Part shown: one piece after another, positions 5,423 through 17,828 of the stretch | Layout of the letters: each line of letters starts with the position of its first letter | How positions within the stretch are numbered: position 1 is the stretch's first letter | NCBI GenBank assembly: GCA_045596725.1 | Contig: JAZOCX010000122.1 | Coordinates: 1 to 26,299 of the forward strand | Source: Eubacteriales bacterium | GTDB lineage: Bacteria > Bacillota > Clostridia > Oscillospirales > UMGS1783 | Length of the DNA stretch: 26,299 nt | Reading direction: 5' to 3' | Position numbers and translations under genes: made by a program | Notes under the pieces: model-generated | Seen by the model: only the letters and a program-made list of their open reading frames with translations | What the model was told of the DNA's origin: nothing | Databases searched by the model: none

Positions 5423-5444
5423 ATGTCGAAAATTGCGGTATAAT
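5416..5444 (+). promoter_or_regulatory. Sigma-A promoter for the exonuclease gene
   Basis: TTGTTT (5416-5421) - 17 bp - TATAAT (5439-5444). Confidence 0.5.
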
Positions 5445-5471
5445 GGGACTATTGAAAGCAAGGAGTACACT

Positions 5472-6368
5472 ATGCACTATATCATACTCGACTTAGAATG
5501 GAATCAACCGCCCCACCCCAAGCGGATGGTGAAAAAGCCGGTGTCCTTGGTGGGCGAGATCATTCAGATCGGCGCCGCCAAGGTGGACGAAGCGATGACG
5601 GTGGTAGATTCTTATAAAACGATGGTTTGTCCCGCCTATTATACCCGTATGCATAAGCACGTGGCCCGTGTTACGGGGCTGACTGATGACGACCTCATTC
5701 AAGGCCTGCCCTTTGCCGAGGCGTTTGAGGATTTTGCCAAGTGGTGCGGTGAAGATTGCATCATCTTCACTTGGGGGCCCGACGATATCCCCATGCTCCG
5801 CACCAATATGCTCTTACATAATATCTCCTGCCCTCTGCCCCCCTGCTACGATTTGCAGGTCATCTACGACGGGCAGATCGCCCACGAAAACCGTCAGCAC
5901 TCCCTGACTGCCGTGATGGAAACCCTCGGCGAACAAGCCCTCGACGCCCACGACGCCTTAAACGACGCCCTGAACACCGCCAAGGTGTGCAAGCATCTTG
6001 ATATAAAAAAGGGCCTTGCCGACTATCCTACCCCCAGCCGTGGCGGATACGAGCGCAAGGGCGAAGCCTTTGCCACCAAGGAAGAAGCGCTGGCGAGCGT
6101 GAGCACCCTCTACTGCCCCTCTTGCGGGGAAAAACTGATCTGTGAGCCCATTAAGCATACCGACGCCCGCCACAGCGAGTGCGACCTTCTCTGCTCGCAG
6201 GGACACGCGTTAAAAATCACCTTCCGCTTTGTCAAATGGGCGGATCGGCTGCTGACCGTTTCCCGTGTGATCGAGGAGAAAACGGAGGACTCTCAAAACG
6301 CTCCGCCTCAGAAAAAGCGCCGTCGCCGCCGCAAGAAAACTTGCGAAGCAAATACCACTCGGCTGTAA
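5472..6368 (+). CDS. DEDDh 3'-5' exonuclease (ERI1/KapD-like) with C-terminal Zn-ribbon-like region and basic tail
   Basis: ILDLEWN, EIIQIGA, DAHDALNDA motifs; CPSC...C..H; KKRRRRRKK; AAGGAG RBS before ATG 5472. Confidence 0.85.
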   Translation: MHYIILDLEWNQPPHPKRMVKKPVSLVGEIIQIGAAKVDEAMTVVDSYKTMVCPAYYTRMHKHVARVTGLTDDDLIQGLPFAEAFEDFAKWCGEDCIIFTWGPDDIPMLRTNMLLHNISCPLPPCYDLQVIYDGQIAHENRQHSLTAVMETLGEQALDAHDALNDALNTAKVCKHLDIKKGLADYPTPSRGGYERKGEAFATKEEALASVSTLYCPSCGEKLICEPIKHTDARHSECDLLCSQGHALKITFRFVKWADRLLTVSRVIEEKTEDSQNAPPQKKRRRRRKKTCEANTTRL

Positions 6369-6418
6369 GCCGAATATCACTGCGTAGCAATATCACTCGG
6401 CTGTAAGCCGAATAACAC
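6341..6418 (+). repeat. Left array of AATA(T/C/A)CAC(T) motifs separated by GNA-loop mini-hairpins
   Basis: AATACCACT-CGGCT GTA AGCCG-AATATCACT-GC GTA GC-AATATCACT-CGGCT GTA AGCCG-AATAACAC, preceded by TTGC GAA GCAA. Confidence 0.85.
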
Positions 6419-6421
6419 ATT

Positions 6422-6449
6422 GGCACCTTCCAAACGGAAGGTGCCTTTC
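6422..6449. terminator. Intrinsic terminator between the exonuclease and four-helix-bundle genes
   Basis: GGCACCTTCC-AAAC-GGAAGGTGCC perfect 10-bp stem followed by TTTC. Confidence 0.8.
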
Positions 6450-6450
6450 A

Positions 6451-6813
6451 TCATCTTTGTTCAAGATTTGATTTTACGGTTTTCAGTGAAGATATTAACA
6501 TTCTGCGTATAACACCGCAATCGTTTTGCAAAGATTTGTAACTCTCTTCATCCATGCAGTCTGTTTCAAAAAGAAGTTCTAACCAATACTCGGTTTCATA
6601 ACACTCTTTTTGTGCTATTTCAAGTTTGGAAATGAAGTCCTTTTTCCCTTGCGCATATTGCGCTTCGTGCAAGTTTGCGCCGACCGAAGCAGCCGACCGA
6701 AGCAGTTGATTAACCAAAACCGCTTCCTTATGATTTGCCTTCATATCACGGCAAAGAAAGACAACCGCCTTTGCAAACTCCTTTGCCTTATTTCGTAAAA
6801 TGCTGTCCCCCAC
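6451..6813 (-). CDS. Four helix bundle protein (TIGR02436 / 23S rRNA IVS-protein-like family)
   Basis: QLLRSAASVGANLHEAQYAQGKKDFISKLEIAQKECYETEYWLELL family signature; GTG start with GAGGT RBS; more AT-rich than its neighbours. Confidence 0.9.
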   Translation of the reverse strand: MGDSILRNKAKEFAKAVVFLCRDMKANHKEAVLVNQLLRSAASVGANLHEAQYAQGKKDFISKLEIAQKECYETEYWLELLFETDCMDEESYKSLQNDCGVIRRMLISSLKTVKSNLEQR

Positions 6814-6831
6814 AACACTAACCTCTGTTTC

Positions 6832-6909
6832 AGTGATATTCCGACTATCGTCGGAGTGATATTTTTGCCGAGCAAAAGTGATATTGATGCCGTTGGCCTC
6901 AGTGTTATT
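6832..6909 (-). repeat. Right array of AGTG(A/T)TATT motifs (reverse complement of the left motif) separated by mini-hairpins
   Basis: AGTGATATT-CCGAC TATC GTCGG-AGTGATATT-TTTGC CGA GCAAA-AGTGATATT-GATGCC GTT GGCCTC-AGTGTTATT. Confidence 0.85.
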
Positions 6910-7905
6910 TTATTCGCCTTCGGCGAATAAAGGTAAAATGCCCTGACCGTTGTCGGTGTGGCAGATGAGCTGATAAATGTCGTGGCCGGGGAAAGGGTTG
7001 CCCTCGACTAAGCAGGGACCCTTGTCGGTAAAGGCGACGTCCCAGCCCACGTACCCGACCTGCGGGATAATGGTGGCGGCTTTTAGTACCAGCGCCTGCG
7101 CCTTGTCCCAATCGGGGAATACAAAACCCGAAATGGGCGTGCCCGTGGCGGGATGATTGGCAAAAATTTCGCCCTTTTTATTCACGGCGTCGTGTAAAAC
7201 CTTGCCCGTTTCCCTCTCCACCGGTACCACCATACCGCCGTGGTTGAAATTATCCACGCTCTCGCCCTCGGCGCCGATGCGCCAATAGGTGCAGACGAGT
7301 TTGGGGGTGCCGTCTTTGAGAATGGTTACGGCACGCAGGGTGTTCACCGCCTTCGGATATACCTTGCAAAGTTCCTCGTGCTGTTTGATGGGCTCTTCAC
7401 AGATCCAGCCCGCATACTCATTGAGTAATTTTTCATAAAGCGTGGGCAGGTCGCCCTCGACCCTGACCCACTCAATACCCCGTCCGCAACAGCCGTCACG
7501 AGGTTTTACCAAAAAGGTGGGGTGCTTTTCCATAAAGGCGAGCATCTGCTCTTTTGTGTCCTGAGCCACTTCTACCCAATCACGGTGGAAAAAGGCGTCA
7601 AAACGCTTGGCAAACTCCACCTTATCATCGAGCAGGCCACGAAAGGCAGGGTCGTTATACTTGCGCCACAACTCGTTATTGCGCCCGCCCGTTAAATAGG
7701 TGGCACGCTCGGCCTCTGAGCGCATATACAGTCCGCAATTTTCGTAGTCGATATATCCCGCACCGTGGCGGCGGGCACATCCGACGATATCCCAAAAGAG
7801 CCACACACGGCTCTTACCCGTCTTCTTTTTCAGGCGAGAAAGGGCCTGCATCATCCCCGATACGTTCAGACTTTTCAGTTTTCTCAGGGCGTACTCTAAA
7901 CCCAT
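6910..7905 (-). CDS. Sugar-transfer-associated ATP-grasp domain protein
   Basis: DDKVEF, VKPRDGCCGRG, EEPIKQH, VNTLR, DNFNHGG, VGWDVA, VEGNPFPG motifs. Confidence 0.8.
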   Translation of the reverse strand: MGLEYALRKLKSLNVSGMMQALSRLKKKTGKSRVWLFWDIVGCARRHGAGYIDYENCGLYMRSEAERATYLTGGRNNELWRKYNDPAFRGLLDDKVEFAKRFDAFFHRDWVEVAQDTKEQMLAFMEKHPTFLVKPRDGCCGRGIEWVRVEGDLPTLYEKLLNEYAGWICEEPIKQHEELCKVYPKAVNTLRAVTILKDGTPKLVCTYWRIGAEGESVDNFNHGGMVVPVERETGKVLHDAVNKKGEIFANHPATGTPISGFVFPDWDKAQALVLKAATIIPQVGYVGWDVAFTDKGPCLVEGNPFPGHDIYQLICHTDNGQGILPLFAEGE

Positions 7906-8732: not shown

Positions 8733-9380
8733 TTATCGGCTTTTGATCCAGCCCGTTACCTGCCCCGAAACGCCCACACGTTCCTTTTGGTTGGTGATGC
8801 GGATGCGTCCGTTTACCACCTTCTCATCCCAGCGGTAATAGACACCCGATACACGCCCCGCCTTCTTCTTGGCGGTAGATGAAACGTAAAGCGGTTCATT
8901 TTTCAAGGTCAATTCCCCCGTTGGGGGCGTCAGCAAGTTTTTCGTCTTGGGACTTTGGCGCTGACCCTCAAAAAGATAGGTTACCTTCTTCGGGTCAAGG
9001 GCGTATTTTGCCTTGTCTTTGAGGTTCCACACGCTGTACGTGCGGGGCGTTTGCCACACCTCATAATGCAAATGCACGCCCGTCGCCTTGCCCGTCTGCC
9101 CCATCACGCCGATGCTCTCGCCCTGCTTCACTTCCTGCCCACGCACCACCGAAATACGGCTTAAATGCCAGTATAAGGTATAATAGTAACCGTTACTGAT
9201 TTCGTGGCGAAGCACGACGTAGAGGGCTTTTGACGAGTCCATACCGCAGGAAGCGACGATGCCGTCGTCGGCGGCGAGAATGGGGACGTTGGGGGTAGTT
9301 TCCCAGCCGAGGTCAATGCCTCGGTGGAGGATCGAATAGTGTTTTGTAATACCAACGTAGTCTACGGGATAGCGTAACAT
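8733..9380 (-). CDS. M23-family peptidase endolysin with C-terminal putative cell-wall-binding domain
   Basis: HRGIDL, YWHL, MGQTGKATGVHLHYEV zinc motifs; AAGGAGG RBS before ATG 9380; follows the holin. Confidence 0.88.
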   Translation of the reverse strand: MLRYPVDYVGITKHYSILHRGIDLGWETTPNVPILAADDGIVASCGMDSSKALYVVLRHEISNGYYYTLYWHLSRISVVRGQEVKQGESIGVMGQTGKATGVHLHYEVWQTPRTYSVWNLKDKAKYALDPKKVTYLFEGQRQSPKTKNLLTPPTGELTLKNEPLYVSSTAKKKAGRVSGVYYRWDEKVVNGRIRITNQKERVGVSGQVTGWIKSR

Positions 9381-9381
9381 C

Positions 9382-9636
9382 TTATTCCTCCTTATCACAA
9401 AGACCTTTGGTGCGGGGGTCGATGACGGCGCTATATAAACTAACGAGCATCGACACGACCACGACGGGATTGCTGAGTGCCTGACCGATTAAATCAAAAA
9501 GGGCAGGCCAACTGGTGATGGAAGTAAAATCACGGCCGAAATAGGTTAGAATGGGTACAAAGAGCGAAACGATACACTGCACCCAAAAGATGGGGTTGGA
9601 AAAGCGGGTTTTCCAATCAATGCCTAAAAATTTCAT
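9382..9636 (-). CDS. Phage holin (phi LC3-like)
   Basis: IDWKTRFSNPIFWV N-terminus, two hydrophobic helices, AVIDPRTKGLCD C-terminus. Confidence 0.85.
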   Translation of the reverse strand: MKFLGIDWKTRFSNPIFWVQCIVSLFVPILTYFGRDFTSITSWPALFDLIGQALSNPVVVVSMLVSLYSAVIDPRTKGLCDKEE

Positions 9637-9639
9637 AGC

Positions 9640-9891
9640 TCACACTCCTTGTATATACCAAAAAACGAAACCGACCAAAAGCGCCACCGCCGACGCCGTT
9701 ACCGACCACAAAGCACGGGTAACGGAACGCAGGGAGGCGTCTACGATATTGAGTTTTTCGTGCATACGAGCCGTCTGCACCGCCATCTCGCCGAAGCGGT
9801 CCTGCTGACCCTTTTGAGAGGATTCCAGTTCTTGCAGACGGGCGTCGATGCGCTCGAAATGCTCACGGCAAACGGGGAGTTCGCAGTCCAT
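9640..9891 (-). CDS. XhlA-family small membrane protein of the lysis cassette
   Basis: Coiled-coil N-terminus, C-terminal transmembrane helix (LLVGFVFWYIQG), position before the holin. Confidence 0.65.
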   Translation of the reverse strand: MDCELPVCREHFERIDARLQELESSQKGQQDRFGEMAVQTARMHEKLNIVDASLRSVTRALWSVTASAVALLVGFVFWYIQGV

Positions 9892-10742
9892 TATACGACC
9901 AGTTTGAGCAGTTCGATATAATACTCATCCGACAGATCCTCGGCGGCAAGATCTAAGAAGGGACGGACGAGGGCGTCGGCATCACCGCCGATGCGCTTGA
10001 CGGTATCGAGCATCGAGAGGATGTTCACACGAATCCACTGATACCGCTCCTTGGCGGTGCCGTCGGCAGGGTAATTGCCCGACGTGGCCTTAGAATCGTT
10101 ATATTTCGAAAGTTCCAACTGATACTGACGGTTACTGTCGGCAATATCGGCGTTGGCCTTCTTCTCGTTTAACTTTTGCTTTTCCACGTCAAGCTGATAC
10201 TGGCGGTTACTATCGGCAATGTCGGCGTTCGCCTTTTTCTCATTGAGTGCCTGCACGGCAAGGGAGAGCTGATACTGACGGTCTTTTTCCGTCTGCTCCA
10301 CTTCCTGCTCCTGACGGCGCACCTGCTCCGAAAGATGCGAGGCGTAGGCGTTTTCCCGTGCCTTGCTGTCGGCCTCGTCCAGCGCCAGCAACGCCTCTCG
10401 CTCCTCTTTGGAGAGTTTATCCAGTTCCTCTTGCGAGAGATTGCGGATCTGCGAAAGGGCGTTTTGATAGACGTTGTAATAGCCCACCTTTGCCGTTTCG
10501 CTCTTGCCCGTTTTATCCAGCCCCAGCGCTGCCATGACCTCGGCGTTGTAGCCGGTGGGGTCGATGTTTTTGGCGTAGTCGGCATAAGCGCCTCGCATAC
10601 TCTCCTGCTTCTTCGCCTCGGCGCTCGCCTTTTTCTCGGCGGTCGTTTGCGCTACCTCTTCCCGCTCTTTTTGCGAGCGTTCCAAGGCTTCTTTCAGTTT
10701 CTTTTCGATAAGTTCATCGATGGTTTTTTCATAATCGCTCAT
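9891..10742 (-). CDS. Coiled-coil virion protein with 25-aa repeats (possible internal/ejection protein)
   Basis: 283 aa, helical and charged, located between the tail and lysis genes; function inferred from position only. Confidence 0.5.
   Translation of the reverse strand: MSDYEKTIDELIEKKLKEALERSQKEREEVAQTTAEKKASAEAKKQESMRGAYADYAKNIDPTGYNAEVMAALGLDKTGKSETAKVGYYNVYQNALSQIRNLSQEELDKLSKEEREALLALDEADSKARENAYASHLSEQVRRQEQEVEQTEKDRQYQLSLAVQALNEKKANADIADSNRQYQLDVEKQKLNEKKANADIADSNRQYQLELSKYNDSKATSGNYPADGTAKERYQWIRVNILSMLDTVKRIGGDADALVRPFLDLAAEDLSDEYYIELLKLVV
10116..10282 (-). repeat. 75-bp period coding tandem repeat (about 2.2 units)
   Basis: TGATACTG(A/G)CGG recurs at 10120, 10195 and 10270; encodes RQYQL...LNEKKANADIADSN. 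Confidence 0.9.
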
Positions 10743-10754
10743 ACTCTTCTCCTT

Positions 10755-11489
10755 TTATGATATGCGTTGCCAGACGTTTACGCCACCCATCAGGTCATCA
10801 CGTTTTACCCAGTTTCCCCCAAAGCGGGATTCGGGTGTCTCACTTCGTAACGAAAGATACAGCGCACCGATGGGATAAATGCGGCCGAGCATCGCTTCAA
10901 AGGTGGTGTCTTCGGGGGCTAACGCCCACTCGCTCGCCTGCTCGCCTAATTCCACCTGCAAATGGCGAAACTGCACCTTGCCGATAAAATCTCTGGCTAT
11001 CATCTGGAAGTAGTAGGAAGCGATGTCGTGCTCGGTTACGAAGACCGATTTGGAAATGCGTTGCCACTCTCCCGCCTTTTTCAGCGAGGTGCTCTTAAAG
11101 GGGGTGAGATACTGACTTTTTCCGCCCGTTTGGGCGTTGCGGGAAAAGCCAAGCTCGAAGCCCAGGTAGGGACGGACGGTGCCGTAGGTGATATCCTCCA
11201 CCACCCTCGCCTCAACCGACAGGGTAACCCACTGCCCCAACAACGGGGCGGTATCGGTGAGATACAGGGAGCGGAAAGCCGTCTGATCAAACTCGGTCAT
11301 GGTAATGGTAACGGTGTGGTCAACACGGTTAAACGTCATCCATTCATCGTCCTTGTAGTCGGCAAAGTCGCCGTTGCGCACGAGGTTGCGCCCGTCAAAG
11401 ACGGGCGGACGCAATTCCTCAATAGCCTTGGTGTTTTTGGCGATTTGGGAGAGGTCGAACTCCCGTTTAATGCGCTCGTAATCGGTCAT
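10755..11489 (-). CDS. Tail/receptor-binding protein with carbohydrate-binding-like domain
   Basis: GRNLVRNGDF start and QVELGEQASEWALAPED end of the beta-sandwich common in Firmicute phage tail proteins; C-terminal IYPIGALY...FGGNW motif; ATGA overlap supports start 11489. Confidence 0.6.
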   Translation of the reverse strand: MTDYERIKREFDLSQIAKNTKAIEELRPPVFDGRNLVRNGDFADYKDDEWMTFNRVDHTVTITMTEFDQTAFRSLYLTDTAPLLGQWVTLSVEARVVEDITYGTVRPYLGFELGFSRNAQTGGKSQYLTPFKSTSLKKAGEWQRISKSVFVTEHDIASYYFQMIARDFIGKVQFRHLQVELGEQASEWALAPEDTTFEAMLGRIYPIGALYLSLRSETPESRFGGNWVKRDDLMGGVNVWQRIS

Positions 11490-12271
11490 AGCCCACGCCT
11501 CCAACCGCTCGCATAGGCATAGATAACGGCACTTTGCCAGCCGCCTTGGTAAATAAAGAGCCGACCACGCTCAAACCCGCCGTCTCGGCGCTGACGAAGG
11601 TTGCCCGACAGGGGCACCGACAGCGTTTTGCCACAACTGCCGACCCCCACCGTTTCCAGACTGACGGTAACGAGGGCGTTTCTCGCCGCTCCCGCCGCAC
11701 GGTAAGCCTTCAACAGTTCTCCGCCCGAGAACATCACCTTGCCCTTATCAAACCCGTCGCGGGTGGCAAAGGATACCCCGCCGATCATAAAACGGAGATT
11801 TTTTGTGGGGTTTGAAAGAGAATCGCTCACCCCCAGCGTGATGCCCTCTTCGAGATTCCCGCCGATGCTCACGATCTGCGAGGCACGGGGCAGGGCGGTG
11901 CAAACCAGATTAAGGCTGACACTACCGCTGCCGGGGGTATAAGCACCGCCCGAGGGCCCGCCGAAGGTACCGCTGATGGAAAGGGTCAGTTTCCCGCTTG
12001 CATCGTGGTTGAATACCCCTTCATAGCTCGCCAACACCACGCTGTCATACCGACCGCTCAGACTGTAATAGTCCGAATAGGTCTTGACCGCCACCCCGCC
12101 GACCGACAACACACCGTTGCAGAGATACTGCTGAAAATAGGTGCCGTTAGCGGTCAGTTTCAGTTCAATGGCAACCACCGAGGTGTTGCCCACGGCGTCA
12201 TAGGCACGCTCGGTCGCTGTGAGCGTTAGGGTGTAGCCGTTTTTAGTAGTTGTTACTGAATTTGTTGCCAT
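11486..12271 (-). CDS. Phage minor structural tail protein (DUF859-like N-terminus)
   Basis: Beta-rich; NTSVVAIEL, HDASGKLTLSISG, ALPRASQI motifs. Confidence 0.55.
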   Translation of the reverse strand: MATNSVTTTKNGYTLTLTATERAYDAVGNTSVVAIELKLTANGTYFQQYLCNGVLSVGGVAVKTYSDYYSLSGRYDSVVLASYEGVFNHDASGKLTLSISGTFGGPSGGAYTPGSGSVSLNLVCTALPRASQIVSIGGNLEEGITLGVSDSLSNPTKNLRFMIGGVSFATRDGFDKGKVMFSGGELLKAYRAAGAARNALVTVSLETVGVGSCGKTLSVPLSGNLRQRRDGGFERGRLFIYQGGWQSAVIYAYASGWRRGL

Positions 12272-12280
12272 ACTGCCTCC

Positions 12281-12748
12281 TTAATAGAGGACGAAGAGAT
12301 CGCCGTCATTGGCGGTGGTGGGCAGGGCGGTACCGCAGGTGATCTTGGCTTGGGTCGCCGCTAAGGACGCCGTAAGGGCGTCCATCTCGACGGCAAAGCC
12401 GTCGAGGGCGTCGGCCTGCTCTTTCAGTTCCGTCTTGCACTCGGCCATCTCCTGTTTTACCTCGCCCACCTGCTCCGACAACGCCTTACCGCAGGCGGCC
12501 GACAATGCGGCGGCCTCGTCCTCGCTGTCAAGCGTATTGTTAACGGCGGGAATATCGATGTTCTCCATCTTGCCGTCGATGAGGGCAAGCGCCTCTTCCA
12601 CCTCGGGCAGGAGGGTTTCGTTAAGGTAGTTGCCGATCTGCACGGCACCCTCATCAAACTTCGCTTTGAGCGCCGCCGCCGTTTCGGTGGGGCTGTCGGG
12701 AAGTTTCGAGATGATGGCGAGATCGGCTGTTAATCTGCTTAAATTCAT
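12281..12748 (-). CDS. Tail fibre-like or coiled-coil structural protein
   Basis: KLPDSP...LKAKFD N-terminus, VNNTLDS..ALSAACGKAL and ITCGTALP..DGDLF fibre-type motifs; start at ATG 12748 after GTGAGG. Confidence 0.5.
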   Translation of the reverse strand: MNLSRLTADLAIISKLPDSPTETAAALKAKFDEGAVQIGNYLNETLLPEVEEALALIDGKMENIDIPAVNNTLDSEDEAAALSAACGKALSEQVGEVKQEMAECKTELKEQADALDGFAVEMDALTASLAATQAKITCGTALPTTANDGDLFVLY

Positions 12749-12756
12749 AGCTTTCC

Positions 12757-14418
12757 TCACTTTACATAGTCAATGATATCGGCACGGTAGCGCACCGCCG
12801 CCACCCCAAACCGCTTATCCGAGGCAAAGCGCAGACGCAGGGTCAGAAAATCCTTTTCCCGCAGAGGCAGACGCACCAAATCATCGTCTGCCGTGGTAAA
12901 GGAAAGGGTGGCAAAATCAAGATGGGCGAAATTCAGTCCCCCAAGATTAAAGGCGGAAACGATGCGCTCGGCTCCCCCGTCGGCAACCGAGGAAACGGTT
13001 ACGTGAGCGTTGGCGATGCGTTTGAGAAGTGCCACCGCCCCTTTTTTGCTGACCCGCTTTCTGAGCGAAGGGTCGCCGGCACACTCATCTCTCGTTTCAA
13101 AGAAACTAATAATCGGCTCGCCGTCGTCGTCGGTGCCGTCGAAAACCACCAAGCGTCCTTCCTTTGCCCCGTACAGTTGTCCTTGCTCGCTCCATACGCC
13201 ATCAAGCCCCACCGTCCAGACAAACCATTCGTACTCACGGTGTCCGTCCACCGTGTAAGGGGCACGGCCGTCGGCAAGATAGAGCGTCCCACCGCACAGC
13301 AGACAGAGATAGGAGCCCCACACGGCAAAGGTCCCGCCCTTTTTGAGGGAAATATCGATCAATGTCGATCGGTGTCCCATACCCGATGCCATACCCTCTA
13401 CGCCACGCTCGGAGCGCCAGACGATATCGTCCAAAAAGGCGGTCGCCTCTCCGATGCACCCCACCGTAATAAGGTCGGCGGGCGGATAGATGCGCCCGAG
13501 CTCGTAATCGGTTTGGGGACGGTGTCGGCAGACTCCGCCCCGATGCAGGGCGTACAGGCAATCCTCGCCTACTACCAAGGCTTCTACGCTGTCCTCACTG
13601 TCCCGATACCAGTCGGTATCGGCGAAATAGGCAGGGTCGCCAAGGCGACTGTGTCGCACCAGCCCGCCCTCGGCGAGAAAGACACGGTTGTCGTACACGC
13701 AAGGGCTTTTGCCACCCGTTACCTTCTCCCGCTCTCCCCCTTTGGCATAGGTAATAATCACGTTATCGTCCCCGCCCGAGGGTGCCGAGGGCGCCGTGGT
13801 AAAGACCACCTTGCCCGCCGTTTTATCGACAGTAAAGGCGGTAACCTTTTTATTATCGACAGTTATCGATATAATATCGTCAATGTCGGTGGCGTCGAGG
13901 TAGTAGTCGGTGGTGCCGTTGCCTCGGAAGGAGTTGATGCGCTTGTTTGTCAATAAATTAACGGGTTGGAGTGCCGTTCCCCCGCCTAAGGGGGCACGGC
14001 CCACCGTCGTCATCGGCACGGTACCTTCCATAACGGAGAGCGTCTTGCCGTCAAAGCGGTAGTAGTTCTCGCCGTCGAGCAGGTAGAGGGCGCCGTCAAA
14101 GACAAAACCCTGCGAGGGAGCATCGGCAAGGGTGCCGATGCTCTTGCCCGTCATATCGCACAGGTCTGCTCCCGCATGGATAAACAGGGCGTCGCCTAAG
14201 CGATAGAGGGCGTGAATGGTGGCGTGAAAATCGTGCAGGGTGCGCATACCGGGGCGGGTTTCGAGGAAATCGGAAAAGCCGTCGGCGTAGCGCTTGTACA
14301 TATTCTCCATACTGGGCGAGCGTCGGGGGCTGATGCTTCTGCCCTGGGTGGAAAAATCCACTCCGCCCAAGGCTTCATAGGCAACGCTTACGCTTCTTGC
14401 CTTTTCGGGTAAGTTCAT
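12757..14418 (-). CDS. Short-tail nozzle / head-stabilisation protein (P22 gp10-like position)
   Basis: 553 aa, beta-rich, GGVDF...RSPSMENM N-terminus, follows the adaptor; assignment by synteny. Confidence 0.5.
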   Translation of the reverse strand: MNLPEKARSVSVAYEALGGVDFSTQGRSISPRRSPSMENMYKRYADGFSDFLETRPGMRTLHDFHATIHALYRLGDALFIHAGADLCDMTGKSIGTLADAPSQGFVFDGALYLLDGENYYRFDGKTLSVMEGTVPMTTVGRAPLGGGTALQPVNLLTNKRINSFRGNGTTDYYLDATDIDDIISITVDNKKVTAFTVDKTAGKVVFTTAPSAPSGGDDNVIITYAKGGEREKVTGGKSPCVYDNRVFLAEGGLVRHSRLGDPAYFADTDWYRDSEDSVEALVVGEDCLYALHRGGVCRHRPQTDYELGRIYPPADLITVGCIGEATAFLDDIVWRSERGVEGMASGMGHRSTLIDISLKKGGTFAVWGSYLCLLCGGTLYLADGRAPYTVDGHREYEWFVWTVGLDGVWSEQGQLYGAKEGRLVVFDGTDDDGEPIISFFETRDECAGDPSLRKRVSKKGAVALLKRIANAHVTVSSVADGGAERIVSAFNLGGLNFAHLDFATLSFTTADDDLVRLPLREKDFLTLRLRFASDKRFGVAAVRYRADIIDYVK

Positions 14419-14957
14419 ATATCCTCACCCGCCCTGACAACGCCCACGCTCTTGGGACGGAAGGTTTGGAACTGCGCAAGCAGTTCGTAGGCATCGGTGC
14501 GGAAACGCACGGCTTTGCGCTCGTCCTCGTCCTCCCAGACGTAAAAGGAGGCGAGTATGGGCAGGAGGATTCCCGCCTCTTCGCTGAGCATCAGTTCCTT
14601 TTCATCGCTATCGGATAGCGTGATACAAGGGGGAGCCACTCGGTAAAAGGCGTACCACTCGCCATCTTCCCCCACGACGATACTGCCGTCGGGCAGGGTA
14701 TGATAGGCGGGACGGGCGGTACGGTCGGCGGTGTAGATATCTACCCAGCCGCCGAAATCGTCGCAGTCGCTTCCGTCAAGAACCTCACCGCCAACGACGC
14801 TCAGCCGAACCCCTTTGATAAGTGGCAGGGTTCGGCACAGCAGTACGGCAGCACGGTTGACCGCCTCACAAAAACGCTCGGGCAGACGGGTGTAGGCGGT
14901 CATATCCTCACCGCCTAAGCGCAACATTTCGCCCTTGATCTCTCCCCATCGTTTCAT
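14415..14957 (-). CDS. Head-tail adaptor-like protein
   Basis: 180 aa immediately after the capsid gene; helical N- and C-termini; assignment by synteny. Confidence 0.5.
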   Translation of the reverse strand: MKRWGEIKGEMLRLGGEDMTAYTRLPERFCEAVNRAAVLLCRTLPLIKGVRLSVVGGEVLDGSDCDDFGGWVDIYTADRTARPAYHTLPDGSIVVGEDGEWYAFYRVAPPCITLSDSDEKELMLSEEAGILLPILASFYVWEDEDERKAVRFRTDAYELLAQFQTFRPKSVGVVRAGEDI

Positions 14958-14975
14958 AAAAATCCCTCCTTTTCA

Positions 14976-14993
14976 CTCCCCCCTAAGGGGGAG
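14976..14993 (-). terminator. GC hairpin after the major capsid gene (partial terminator or stabiliser)
   Basis: CTCCCCC-CTAA-GGGGGAG stem in the largest gap (42 nt) of the operon. Confidence 0.4.
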
Positions 14994-14999
14994 CGTGTC

Positions 15000-15815
15000 T
15001 TAGGCGCTGTGTGCCTTAATAACGTACATTTCCTTGGGACGAACCACCTTCGCGCCATAGGTATCCAAGCCCTTAACGGCATCCTGGAAACGCTGGGCGG
15101 GGCGATAGGCCTCGGTCTGATTGATCTGACCGGCAAAGGCGATCGCCTTTTTGGTACGGATCATCATATAATCGTCGGTGCCGTCGCTATACAGATTGGT
15201 GGAAATCTTCACCATGGCGCCGTTGTACATACCGACGATACCCTTCTTCACCAACTCCACGTTGTCGGTGTAGAGGTGGGTGAGGGCGTCCTTAAAGAGG
15301 TTATAGAACCAAGGGCTGACGGTGATAACGACCTCGTCGTTAATCTTCACGTCGTTGCCCCAGAGCCATACGAAGGCGTCGTCAACCGCCTTTTTGGCGC
15401 TCTCGGCATCGCTGACGGCAAGGGAGTCGGAGAGTTTGCCGGCATCAATTGCCTGCGCACCGACAAAGCGATCACGCTCCTGAGCGAGTGCAGCGGCCGA
15501 TTCCTGCATCAGGGCAGGCATCAGGCCCTCGATGGACTGTGCCTTGTCCACGTCGTCCACGCCGAAGTTGAAGAACTTGGCCTGGGTGATGTCGAGGTAC
15601 AGGGCGGTGTCGGCAACCTCTTCGGGGGCGCCGATGTCGGTGCCGGTGTAGTCGCCGATGGTGGGACGGGTTACGCCCAAAATCTTAACACGGGAGCCAC
15701 GCTTGGCGTCGCCCTCGAATTCGGTGTTGCAGTCTTCGACCAATACCGAAGCCTTTTCCAGCTCGTGCTGAATGTGATTGGACCATACGATCGGTTTGAA
15801 ATTAGAATAAGCCAT
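15000..15815 (-). CDS. Major capsid protein (P22 coat protein gp5-like, HK97 fold)
   Basis: FKPIVWS...NTEFEG.AKRGSRVKI N-terminus, F.DAVKGL.TYGAKVVRP C-terminus; follows portal and scaffold. Confidence 0.85.
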   Translation of the reverse strand: MAYSNFKPIVWSNHIQHELEKASVLVEDCNTEFEGDAKRGSRVKILGVTRPTIGDYTGTDIGAPEEVADTALYLDITQAKFFNFGVDDVDKAQSIEGLMPALMQESAAALAQERDRFVGAQAIDAGKLSDSLAVSDAESAKKAVDDAFVWLWGNDVKINDEVVITVSPWFYNLFKDALTHLYTDNVELVKKGIVGMYNGAMVKISTNLYSDGTDDYMMIRTKKAIAFAGQINQTEAYRPAQRFQDAVKGLDTYGAKVVRPKEMYVIKAHSA

Positions 15816-15819
15816 TGTT

Positions 15820-16299
15820 TTATCTCCATTTCGTCATTGATTTTTGAATCCGTGCCAAAAGGCCCGGATCTTTTTTGAAGTCGGCACGGGTCAAGCGGTC
15901 GACCTCTTGGGGGGTGTAGTATTCCTTGGGTGTCTCCACGGCGGCGTTGACCTCACCGACCGTGGGAGGCGGGGCAGCCGTTCCCCGTTTCTTTGCGGCT
16001 GCAAGGATCTCATAGGCGGTAACGGCGTCTACCCGACCCGTTGCCATAATGTGAATGAAATCCTTTGGCAGGTCATCCAGCCCCGTTGCGGAAAATTCGG
16101 GATACACCGCTTTTATCGAGGCGATGTCCTTTTCCACGGCGGTACGATCACGAAGCTTGCGCAGATCGCTTAACTCCGCTTGGCTGTCCTGCCACTGCTG
16201 TTGCTGGGCTTTCAGGGTTCCCAGCTCCTGTTCGGCACGCTCCTTGGCACGTCGCAAGGCGGCAAAGGCGGCGTTGTCCTGAGGGGTCTGCTTTTCCAT
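15820..16299 (-). CDS. Capsid scaffolding protein (putative)
   Basis: Coiled-coil N-terminus (DNAAFAALRR), short helical C-terminal capsid-binding-like tail; between portal and capsid. Confidence 0.6.
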   Translation of the reverse strand: MEKQTPQDNAAFAALRRAKERAEQELGTLKAQQQQWQDSQAELSDLRKLRDRTAVEKDIASIKAVYPEFSATGLDDLPKDFIHIMATGRVDAVTAYEILAAAKKRGTAAPPPTVGEVNAAVETPKEYYTPQEVDRLTRADFKKDPGLLARIQKSMTKWR

Positions 16300-16313
16300 T
16301 TCTCTTCTCCTTT

Positions 16314-17819
16314 TTACGCATTGAGGGTGCGATTTTGCAAAATTTGCTCCAATTTACCCTTGGGCAGTGCCGAGGATGCATCAAGCAAACTTACATACTC
16401 TTCAAAACTTAAATGTCCCGCCGCAAACAGGTTATCGAGCGCCTGCGCTGCGGCATAGCGGGAGTAGGGCGATTCGGAGGAAATGTCCACCCGAATTCTG
16501 ACACGAAGCCCGTCAAAGGCAGAGGGCGCAAGAATCTCCTCACTGCCGTCGGTATAGATGACCGCCAAGCCCGAAGGATGATAGACGCACCAAAGTTCAA
16601 ACCAAAGTGCGGCAATATCCTCGATGCACTGACGATAGGAAGCAATCTGCTCGTTAAGAGGCAACTGTGCCAAATCACGCACCGCCAAAATAGCGGCACC
16701 CGAAGCCTTTTCGGGGTTAATAGCGCCCATGATCCCGTCGCCGGCACCGGCAAGGGCACGGGTGGTGTTCATCAGTTCATCCGCCAAACGCTCGGCGGCA
16801 CTGTTAATAGGTGCAGGCGTCAGATAGGTGATGAGGTCGCTGACAGGGTTCTCGGTCAGATTTTCCACCGCCACGTGCGCCCCCACCTGCGAAAGGGTGT
16901 CGGGATCGCCGATGCGGTCTTTGTCGTAAACGAGTTTCGGGTAGGCAAAGTTCTTTACCGCCAGCGCCCGTCTTGCCATCGTCTTGTTCAGCTCGTCTTG
17001 GTTGGGGATGAGTCCCGCCACCTCGCTGTACCCACGCGACGAGCCCTTCACGGTCTGCCACACCAGATGCACCAGCGGATAGAGCGAAAGTCCGCCCCTC
17101 ACCTTTCCCTGCTCGTCGATGGAGCACAGGGGCGTGTCGGGCTGGTAGATGACCGTCTTGGTCGAGCGCATCGTGTGTACGTACCCCTGCTCGTCCTTGT
17201 ACAGATAGAGTAGGCTCGTACACTTGCTCTGCCCCATCTCGGCCTTGGCCTGCTCGGTGAGCAGATTGCCCGTTAAATCATCGGGCAGAACCTGCGAAAG
17301 CACCTTGTCGCTCAGCCCGTTTTGTTTGCCGATGCGGTAAATGTCCTCGATGCTCCGACGCTCGGCAATCACAATATAGGGCTGACGCTGAATATCGGCG
17401 CACTGCTCGTCGCCTAAGTAAATGTTGGTGCTGTCCAGCACCTCGGCACGGCCGTCGGCATCGTAAAAGTAGAGGAAACTGTCCCCCACCACCGCCGCAT
17501 CACGTACCGCCGCCCAGCATAAACTGTCGAGCTTAAACTGCTCCCAGCGTGCGGCGGCAAAATCGCAGAGTTTTTCGCAAAGCTCGGCATTGCCCTGTCC
17601 AATGGGGGTAAAGGTAATGCCCACCTTGCCCTGCGCTACCGTGGCTACCTTGTTTTTCACGGTGGGCCCGATAATGTTCATCACCGGCCAGTCCTCGCCC
17701 TGCCATTGGTCGCCAAGGTAGTAACGATGCGCCTTTTCGGCACTCTCGTACAGTCCGATGCGCCGATGATGCTCTTGTCCTTTCTCGTAAAGTTGCCAGA
17801 TTTCGGTTGCTTGTTTCAT
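16314..17819 (-). CDS. Portal protein (P22/podovirus-like)
   Basis: 501 aa following terL; YYLGDQW, SGAAI motifs; helical C-terminus. Confidence 0.8.
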   Translation of the reverse strand: MKQATEIWQLYEKGQEHHRRIGLYESAEKAHRYYLGDQWQGEDWPVMNIIGPTVKNKVATVAQGKVGITFTPIGQGNAELCEKLCDFAAARWEQFKLDSLCWAAVRDAAVVGDSFLYFYDADGRAEVLDSTNIYLGDEQCADIQRQPYIVIAERRSIEDIYRIGKQNGLSDKVLSQVLPDDLTGNLLTEQAKAEMGQSKCTSLLYLYKDEQGYVHTMRSTKTVIYQPDTPLCSIDEQGKVRGGLSLYPLVHLVWQTVKGSSRGYSEVAGLIPNQDELNKTMARRALAVKNFAYPKLVYDKDRIGDPDTLSQVGAHVAVENLTENPVSDLITYLTPAPINSAAERLADELMNTTRALAGAGDGIMGAINPEKASGAAILAVRDLAQLPLNEQIASYRQCIEDIAALWFELWCVYHPSGLAVIYTDGSEEILAPSAFDGLRVRIRVDISSESPYSRYAAAQALDNLFAAGHLSFEEYVSLLDASSALPKGKLEQILQNRTLNA

Positions 17820-17828
17820 AAGCTCCTC

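Follow-up and report, generated by a model that had tools for sequence, protein, structure and literature searches.

The stretch of DNA analysed here (hereafter the window) comprises 26,299 bp from a bacterium of the order Eubacteriales (contig JAZOCX010000122.1, assembly GCA_045596725.1, here G000) and carries, between an exonuclease gene and an ATP-grasp gene, a gene for a four-helix-bundle (4HB) protein of family PF05635 that is bracketed by two arrays of a 9-nt word alternating with short hairpins. Our analysis indicates that the arrays are the arms of a mobile, multi-copy hairpin repeat of the Gut-1 type, that arrays of this kind are specifically associated with the 4HB gene family, and that the window copy is a permuted, promoter-less 'bracket-type' cassette with truncated arms. 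On balance we think that the window probably holds a rearranged copy of a small mobile module, made of a two-armed AATATCACT hairpin array and a PF05635 gene, in which the 4HB protein would act as the reader of the words.

Hairpin arrays as arms of a Gut-1-type repeat

The exact word AATAHCACT is found seven times in the window, always within 6351–6397 (plus strand) or 6832–6909 (minus strand), against an expectation of 0.32 from shuffled sequence, and none of 100 shuffles reached seven. An eighth word, AATAACACA, is located at 6411–6419. Four words alternating with three mini-hairpins are therefore present on each side of the gene and the two arrays are mutually inverted, as an earlier note on this DNA had described, apart from the one variant word. 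In the left or 'conserved' arm of the repeat (6351–6419, plus strand), the words start at 6351 (AATACCACT), 6373 and 6389 (both AATATCACT) and 6411 (AATAACACA), and the three mini-hairpins have GTA loops (6360–6372, cggcT-GTA-Agccg; 6382–6388, gc-GTA-gc; 6398–6410, cggcT-GTA-Agccg). The mini-hairpin TGC-GAA-GCA (6342–6350) stands just before this arm, and the terminal hairpin GGCACCTTCC-aaac-GGAAGGTGCC (6422–6445, 10-bp stem) forms its end, resembles a terminator for the plus strand and is separated by 6 nt from the 4HB stop codon. The same hairpin also terminates the copies of the repeat at C44, C45 and C68 in this genome, at the outermost edge of the inserted DNA. The right or 'variable', gene-proximal arm (6832–6909, minus strand) has words at 6832, 6855, 6877 and 6901 (AATATCACT three times plus AATAACACT) and hairpins at 6841–6854, 6864–6876 and 6886–6900 that are unlike those of the left arm, and is followed by the closing hairpin TTTATTCGCC-ttc-GGCGAATAAA (6909–6931). 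Readings of the arrays as CRISPR or integron attC sites were rejected, since the words are only 9 nt long and neither a cas gene nor an integrase gene is found nearby.

Comparison with Rfam matched the arms to Gut-1 (RF01706), which Weinberg et al. 2010 (PMC2864571) described from human-gut metagenomes as a candidate RNA with 43 sequences and no reported gene context. The left arm scored 48.4 bits (E 2e-8; 6347–6420, minus strand) and the right arm 33.3 bits (6831–6889, plus strand), both below the gathering cut-off of 50 bits. The alignment covers model positions 1–77 and shows three hairpins joined by purine-rich linkers, with AGUGAUAUU in place of GUGAAAU. The genome as a whole gave 23 matches, of which ten, all outside the window, exceed the cut-off (51.5–65 bits), indicating that the repeat family is a member of Gut-1 and that the window arms are sub-threshold variants of it. 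The exact GTGAAAT word stands next to a 4HB gene in a relative (locus L021), and among 150 other genomes sampled across the phylum only two had Gut-1 matches.

The assembly of the window's genome consists of 1.1 Mb in 152 contigs and is 69% complete. We found about 17 loci with clustered words in it, most of them compact, two-armed and gene-less, and the true copy number is probably higher, because many contigs end inside the repeat. The compact gene-less form (130–180 bp) is composed of the terminal hairpin, the conserved arm, a centre and the variable arm, and word orientation is opposite between the arms. The conserved arm is built from the units cgcc..ggcg, GCGAAGC and atgc..gcat or cggc..gccg; the centre is AGTTTTnnGGCGAATAA, and the centre region of compact copies reads ..TTATTCGCC nnn AAAACT cgcgaagcg AATACCACT. 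The hairpins of the variable arm come from a small repertoire. The earlier note had seen a conserved linker between differing hairpins; on this point a correction is needed, in that most of the hairpins are of a few types, which are found again in other copies and other genomes. Beyond the variable arm, the gene-less copies C15, C67 and C72 have sequence in common with one another, as do C45, C54 and C68. Generic detectors (chains of perfect hairpins, or any 6-mer occurring three times) either produced too much noise or failed to find real arrays, and the reversed-sequence control for them was invalid because reversal preserves palindromes; a strict dyad detector and a word-chain score were used instead. 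The dyad detector returned seven loci in the genome against none in five Markov shuffles, and only the window locus has a gene-sized gap between its arms.

Could the motif be a free-standing small RNA gene, as it is filed in Rfam, with no relation to mobility? The match to the covariance model supports the hairpins, but dozens of copies per genome, in both orientations and as dyads, insertion polymorphisms (see below) and a position inside the coding ends of two genes here, with no promoter, make this scarcely credible.

Insertion sites and clues to the mechanism

The gene-less copies lie mostly between convergent genes. At all four sites that could be analysed (C44, C133, C134 and C45), an element of about 330–370 bp, composed of terminal hairpin, conserved arm, centre, variable arm and two further hairpins, is inserted inside the loop of a bidirectional intrinsic terminator hairpin. 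At C134, for example, the left stem AAAAAAGGCTCAGCC leads into the loop and then the insert, before the right stem GGCTGAGCCTTTTTTT begins. The same sites in G001, G002, G003 and/or G005, which belong to the same genus, show an intact terminator hairpin with nothing inside. G005 shares the C44 insertion with G000, and at C133, C134 and C45 G000 was the only filled one of the genomes that could be compared at each site; at C67, C23 and C4 the relatives are rearranged or carry other DNA. The intact terminator hairpins of the same-genus genomes indicate that the repeat is mobile, and the terminal and further hairpins at the edges of the insert indicate that the element brings replacement terminators with it. 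These filled and empty sites bear out the earlier proposal of a transposase-less mobile repeat resembling the repetitive extragenic palindromic sequences (REP) and bacterial interspersed mosaic elements (BIME). A parallel to insertion into terminator loops is provided by IS1397, which inserts into the loops of REP sequences.

The hairpins themselves offer clues to the form in which the element is active. Their stems contain 501 Watson-Crick pairs against 12 mismatches (5 G-T, 5 A-C and 2 other), so that no wobble bias is seen, unlike in the usual structured RNAs. Within the AATATCACT word family, for which loop asymmetry was scored, 42 of 93 distinct loops on the AATATCACT-sense strand are of the GNA/GNRA type and none is of the reverse-complement type; this strand-specific pattern holds in both arms and agrees with the dyad symmetry of the element. 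Triloops, closed as C-GNA-G, account for about half of the loops, and the most conserved unit is the 7-nt GCGAAGC. The GNA triloops of the earlier note were found again; where a C-G pair closes them, they show enrichment on one strand. C-G-closed triloops and the GCGAAGC unit dominate and are well known as ultra-stable mini-hairpins of DNA. They speak for a single-stranded DNA form, although not decisively, and we lean slightly towards DNA rather than RNA as the active form.

A further suggestion of the earlier note was a trans-acting HUH-type enzyme, which we considered as the mobilisation in trans of a REP/BIME-like repeat by an HUH transposase (Y1, REP-associated tyrosine transposase (RAYT) or IS200-type). 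Intergenic palindromic copies at the 3' ends of convergent genes, hairpins of a kind that single-stranded DNA favours, the lack of target duplication and the presence of one Y1_Tnp gene in the genome all agree with such a mechanism. That sole Y1 gene, however, is IS200-like, is located on a contig of 1975 bp (C121:886-1242, minus strand) and has hairpins of its own, with no AATATCACT arrays flanking it. Among 121 genomes of the order, Y1 transposases occur in 12 of the 36 that bear arrays and in 17 of the 85 others (p 0.16), and they are absent in 10 of 16 high-copy genomes. These data weakly refute mobilisation by an HUH enzyme, and we regard it as very improbable. Reverse transcriptases likewise do not track the arrays in the same 121 genomes (10/36 vs 16/85, p 0.33) and are absent in 10 of the 16 high-copy genomes; no match to RVT_1 was found in the 69%-complete assembly or among the open reading frames (ORFs) of the window that were scanned.

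Association with four-helix-bundle genes and anatomy of the window copy

To relate arrays and genes, 4HB loci were sampled blind to arrays, by DNA similarity to the window gene, by best Pfam scores and by protein search, and an array was called when the word-chain score was at least 5 upstream of or around the gene. Word arrays were present at 23 of 37 distinct 4HB loci and at none of 103 control segments from the same loci (p 5e-17), and only 7 of 3072 windows across the genome of the window had one. In a maximum-likelihood tree of 38 4HB proteins, the proteins group by the word of their array and not by host taxonomy, with clades for words that include AGTKATATT, GCGATAT, AGCTAAAT, RTGAAGY, AATGATGT and GTGATGY (support 97/92 for clade A and 100/99 for clade C). 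The word labels change 14 times on the tree, against 25.8 times in shuffles, and none of 200 shuffles was as low. Single genomes hold several pairs of clade and word, as in G014 with clades A, C and E. The agreement between protein clades and words shows that gene and array move as one unit, and the link between arrays and this gene family that had been proposed from the window alone is supported across the order. In the 121 genomes, arrays of the window word occur in 36, and the cognate clade (at least 62% identity) in 15, all of which have arrays, and in none of the 85 array-less genomes; part of this co-occurrence is trivial, as every gene comes with an array of its own.

The five modules closest to the window copy lie in five unrelated contexts, next to genes for a type I restriction-modification S subunit, a GH92 glycosidase, an AraC regulator, a glutamine synthetase and a GNAT acetyltransferase. 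Adjacency to tRNA genes is common for the gene-bearing modules of relatives and is absent at the window and at most gene-less copies, and nothing convincing was found when a split terminator was sought around the gene-bearing modules of clade A. The other two PF05635 genes of G000 (C105:4119-4736 and C91:792-1423) each follow a tRNA gene (Arg-CCG and Gly-CCC), a terminator and an array of their own word (AACATCRTT and ATATCAT, respectively), and no amplified gene-less copies of these two words were seen in this genome. At locus L037 (G104:C35:70273-71293), an AATGATG array stands in the 400-bp interval that separates two PF05635 genes from different clades, which may be an arrangement of tandem or nested modules. 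No description of a pairing between PF05635 and Gut-1 or hairpin arrays was found in the literature searched, where papers on PF05635 treat it only as Avd-like, as the ORF of intervening sequences or as genes inside cas loci; that 23S_rRNA_IVP genes have been reported within cas loci is in keeping with a cassette inserting into operons.

The 4HB gene of the window (6451–6813, minus strand) is intact, starts with GTG and encodes 120 aa that match PF05635 / 23S_rRNA_IVP with 95.9 bits (cut-off 33.8). A 13-nt tandem repeat within it (6679–6705) was considered as a lesion and rejected, being in frame with the conserved LLRSAASVG segment. All invariant residues are kept, with R39, S43, N47 and E50 invariant or nearly so, in line with the R-x3-S-x3-N-x2-E motif of these proteins (PMC3936711). 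The AlphaFold2 model (pLDDT 94.6) shows four helices in an Avd-like fold, with TM-scores of 0.84–0.96 to PDB 2RLD and 0.68–0.83 to Avd (4DWL/8UB7), and the profile match to the solved 2RLD / 2GSC family has an E-value of 4.5e-51. These closest solved relatives have five chains each in the deposit, which by analogy would fit a ring for the 4HB protein. The family is large: one search at E 1e-10 returned more than 7,900 relatives. The AT-richness of the gene relative to its neighbours, remarked on previously, was confirmed: its GC content is 40.8% and that of the arrays 41.5–48%, against 55–56% in the neighbouring genes, and the cassette overall has 41%; the whole window has 54.5% and the genome 47.8%.

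In the closest relatives, whose proteins are 80–85% identical to that of the window, the standard module has the order terminal hairpin, conserved arm, centre, variable arm, promoter, ribosome-binding site and gene, and the -35 box of the promoter (TTGAAA-17-TATAAT) is fused to the last word. The right arm of the window aligns unit by unit with the variable arm of these modules. What separates this arm from the gene is an 18-nt spacer (6814–6831, minus strand) that contains the ribosome-binding site (GAGG) and is the scar left by the loss of 29 bp, among them the promoter spacer and the -10 box of the close relatives; no promoter-like site was found upstream of the 4HB gene on the minus strand. 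Beyond the centre, the conserved arm on the right side has collapsed to the hairpin TTTATTCGCC-ttc-GGCGAATAAA; we read the closing hairpin at 6909–6931 as the centre joined to the far end of the collapsed arm, with some ambiguity in the exact junction, as the native tail (TTATTGGAATTG) looks like the end of the element. On the left, comparison with the centres of compact copies and with the native tail in G003 places the junction at 6336–6350 (plus strand), where a remnant of the centre, AAAACT, is followed by TGC-GAA-GCA, and the join to the exonuclease gene falls within a shared AAAA(C) microhomology. In gene orientation, the window thus shows the order variable arm, gene, terminal hairpin and conserved arm, a circular permutation of the standard module that tandem modules, or a circle opened at its centre, could have produced. 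The bracket type, with a promoter-less junction of arm and gene, is also found at L064, L025, L032/L042 and L031, in four protein clades. L064 belongs to the same clade as the window protein and has fully complementary arms, L032 has a promoter upstream of the first arm, and L048 shows the opposite arrangement, with the gene at the dyad centre.

This anatomy bears on whether two independent, decayed gene-less insertions could flank an unrelated 4HB gene by chance. The hairpins of the two arms differ in the window, neither arm is accompanied by its partner, the promoter has been deleted and some 16 further copies in the genome are gene-less, which speaks for such a coincidence. The unit-by-unit homology of the right arm to the arm that precedes the gene in the closest relatives largely refutes it for that arm, however, and together with the array frequency at 4HB loci, the match between clades and words and the recurrence of the bracket type in four clades it renders chance quite improbable.

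The standard module also raises the question of cis-regulation, in which the arrays would be an operator or a structured leader or trailer RNA of the 4HB gene (for autoregulation, for example), gene-less copies would be dead or act as decoys and the protein would have no part in mobility. The fusion of the last word to the -35 box speaks for this, as do the promoter of L032, which lies upstream of the arm and makes it a 5' leader, and the filing of Gut-1 as an RNA by Rfam. In the standard module, though, a terminator precedes the arrays and the promoter comes only after them, a poor position for any part of the mRNA; in addition, gene-less copies far outnumber gene-linked ones, insertion polymorphisms occur in terminator loops and the stems have no G-U bias. 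We allow a purely regulatory role a small chance of being correct.

The bracket arrangement suggests yet another process, at the RNA level, in which the arms of a cassette resembling an intervening sequence pair and are cut by RNase III, releasing or silencing the 4HB mRNA, and the cassette spreads through a resident reverse transcriptase with the protein as an Avd-like cofactor. The window cassette has no promoter of its own and lies downstream of an operon, and the predicted RNA fold of its minus strand (-202.6 kcal/mol, z -7.0) encloses the ORF by pairing the words of one arm with those of the other. Moreover, the fold resembles Avd, a known cofactor of reverse transcriptases, and ORF-bearing 23S intervening sequences carry the PF05635 family (PMC4990558). 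Weighing against this process, RVT_1 was not found in the assembly and reverse transcriptases do not track the arrays, while C-GNA-G triloops, GCGAAGC and stems with no G-U bias are more typical of DNA mini-hairpins, and we consider it unlikely.

At the same position in three same-genus genomes, the gene order is exonuclease, then a short-chain dehydrogenase/reductase (SDR) gene and the ATP-grasp gene in the opposite orientation, an alternative allele at the junction that the earlier note had proposed to compare for an empty site. The cassette has replaced the SDR gene at the end of the ATP-grasp operon, with junctions inside the last codons of both neighbours, and the displaced gene was not found elsewhere in the 69%-complete assembly. 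On the left, the RNase_T-family exonuclease (5433–6368, plus strand; PF00929, 52 bits) receives its last nine codons and stop (..TCEANTTRL*) from the element: orthologues in the genus end ..KKKTNTEQKEQA, the window tail reads ..KKTCEANTTRL, and the native match runs through AAGAAAA (6333–6339) before diverging; the join falls within lysine codons. The contribution of the left array to the end of this gene, and the abutment of the right array on the ATP-grasp stop codon, were both as previously noted. The C-terminal tail of this exonuclease (6300–6340; orthologues L008–L013) is conserved and highly basic (PPQKKRRRRRKKK..), which is unusual for the family. On the right, the ATP-grasp gene (ATPgrasp_ST; 6910–7905, minus strand; PF14397, 165.7 bits) lies upstream of the cassette on the same strand, and its stop codon (6910–6912) adjoins the last word of the right arm. 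The closing hairpin encodes the final residues and stop of the protein, which ends ..GILPLFAEGE* instead of ..GIYPQFQ* as in G003, having gained ..AEGE*. As the cassette follows this gene on the same strand, read-through from it is the only evident source of transcription and the likely one for any transcript of the cassette. A search of sequencing runs listed no RNA run for this stretch, and the DNA runs matched at most 0.20 of the sampled words. Some 2–12 kb from the cassette, at 8733–19181 (minus strand), there are phage-type genes for an M23 peptidase, a DUF859 siphovirus protein, a P22-like portal and a terminase large subunit, in what looks like a prophage or prophage remnant.

Proposed explanation and comparison with known systems

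In the explanation that we favour, the window derives from a mobile module of array and gene. On one strand and not the other, the arms would form ladders of very stable C-GNA-G mini-hairpins, between which the words are exposed as single-stranded spacers, and a ring-forming 4HB protein would be the cognate reader of the words, with about one word per subunit. The protein would be an adaptor that recruits a host enzyme and not a catalyst, by analogy with Avd in diversity-generating retroelements, and gene-less copies would be non-autonomous derivatives. In bracket-type copies the arms may be transcribed together with the gene and pair to enclose the ORF, as in the ORF-bearing intervening sequences of 23S rRNA. 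That the 4HB protein reads the words is the best available hypothesis that we can offer for the association described above.

Several observations weigh against this explanation. No consistent target-site duplication was seen at the four compared sites, with AAAC possibly duplicated at one site in G005, and no enzyme able to cut or join the element was identified. The agreement between clades and words is by itself no proof of recognition, as linkage gives the same pattern, and the co-occurrence of gene and array is subject to the triviality mentioned above. Six genomes with at least 10 word pairs have no gene of the cognate clade, which indicates that gene-less copies persist, or spread, without the gene. 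The protein has an isoelectric point (pI) of 6.7 (family median 7.8) and is near neutral, unlike the basic Avd. The loop asymmetry comes from the AATATCACT family only, and at one locus with the AATGATGT dialect (L023, G001:C78) the GAA loops of both arms appear by eye to be on one physical strand; strand rules may differ between dialects. Finally, the arms of the window have only words in common and not hairpins, both are truncated and the promoter is deleted, and the bracket could be an accident of rearrangement in which the gene may be silent.

Extending the favoured explanation, we tentatively raise the possibility that PF05635 proteins in general, those of intervening sequences included, are sequence-specific partners of Gut-1-type arrays. 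Proteins and arrays would then jointly make up a hitherto unrecognised class of transposase-less elements that home to hairpin loops (those of terminators and, by extension, of rRNA helices), in which a ring adaptor reads single-stranded words exposed among ultra-stable mini-hairpins and borrows host replication or repair enzymes in order to move. If it is indeed the protein that confers specificity, the only gene of such a mobile element would encode a non-enzymatic adaptor. With these results Gut-1, an orphan RNA motif without explanation since 2010, acquires an identity in the genome, as one arm of a mobile repeat, and the very large and uncharacterised PF05635 family, which is related to the Avd of diversity-generating retroelements and includes the puzzling ORFs of 23S intervening sequences, gains a concrete and testable partner. 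Precise insertion into terminator loops and empty sites in sister genomes make mobility and binding assays straightforward to design.

Among known systems, Gut-1 is similar in having at least three short hairpins with a fixed linker (GUGAAAU in the model and AGUGAUAUU here), although as published it is a candidate non-coding RNA with no gene link, second arm or mobility. Avd (4DWL, 8UB7) is also a four-helix bundle, as the TM-scores above indicate, and serves as an adaptor, with structured RNA and a polymerase as its binding partners. It differs in that identity is only about 15%, the window has no reverse transcriptase and no template or variable repeats, and the window protein is near neutral and not basic.

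The ORF-bearing intervening sequences of 23S rRNA, known from Coxiella and Leptospira with an S23p / PF05635 ORF (PMC4990558), share the protein family, are likewise enclosed by stem-forming inverted repeats, are regarded as selfish and have no recombinase of their own. They are located in the rRNA gene (helix 25 or 45), whereas the neighbours of the window cassette are protein-coding and no Rfam family, rRNA included, scored above its cut-off in the 26-kb window. Ladders of words and hairpins instead of a simple stem, abundant gene-less copies and the terminator-loop target are further differences.

REP/BIME sequences with their RAYT and miniature inverted-repeat transposable elements (MITEs) differ from the present repeat in the association with a Y1 or DDE transposase, which is not seen here, in the lack of a consistent target duplication here and in the grammar of 9-nt words and hairpins; with regard to MITEs, dyad arms and terminal hairpins are present and no parent insertion sequence was seen. 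They nevertheless resemble it in being short, structured, multi-copy mosaic repeats that are intergenic, lie between convergent genes and are polymorphic among relatives.

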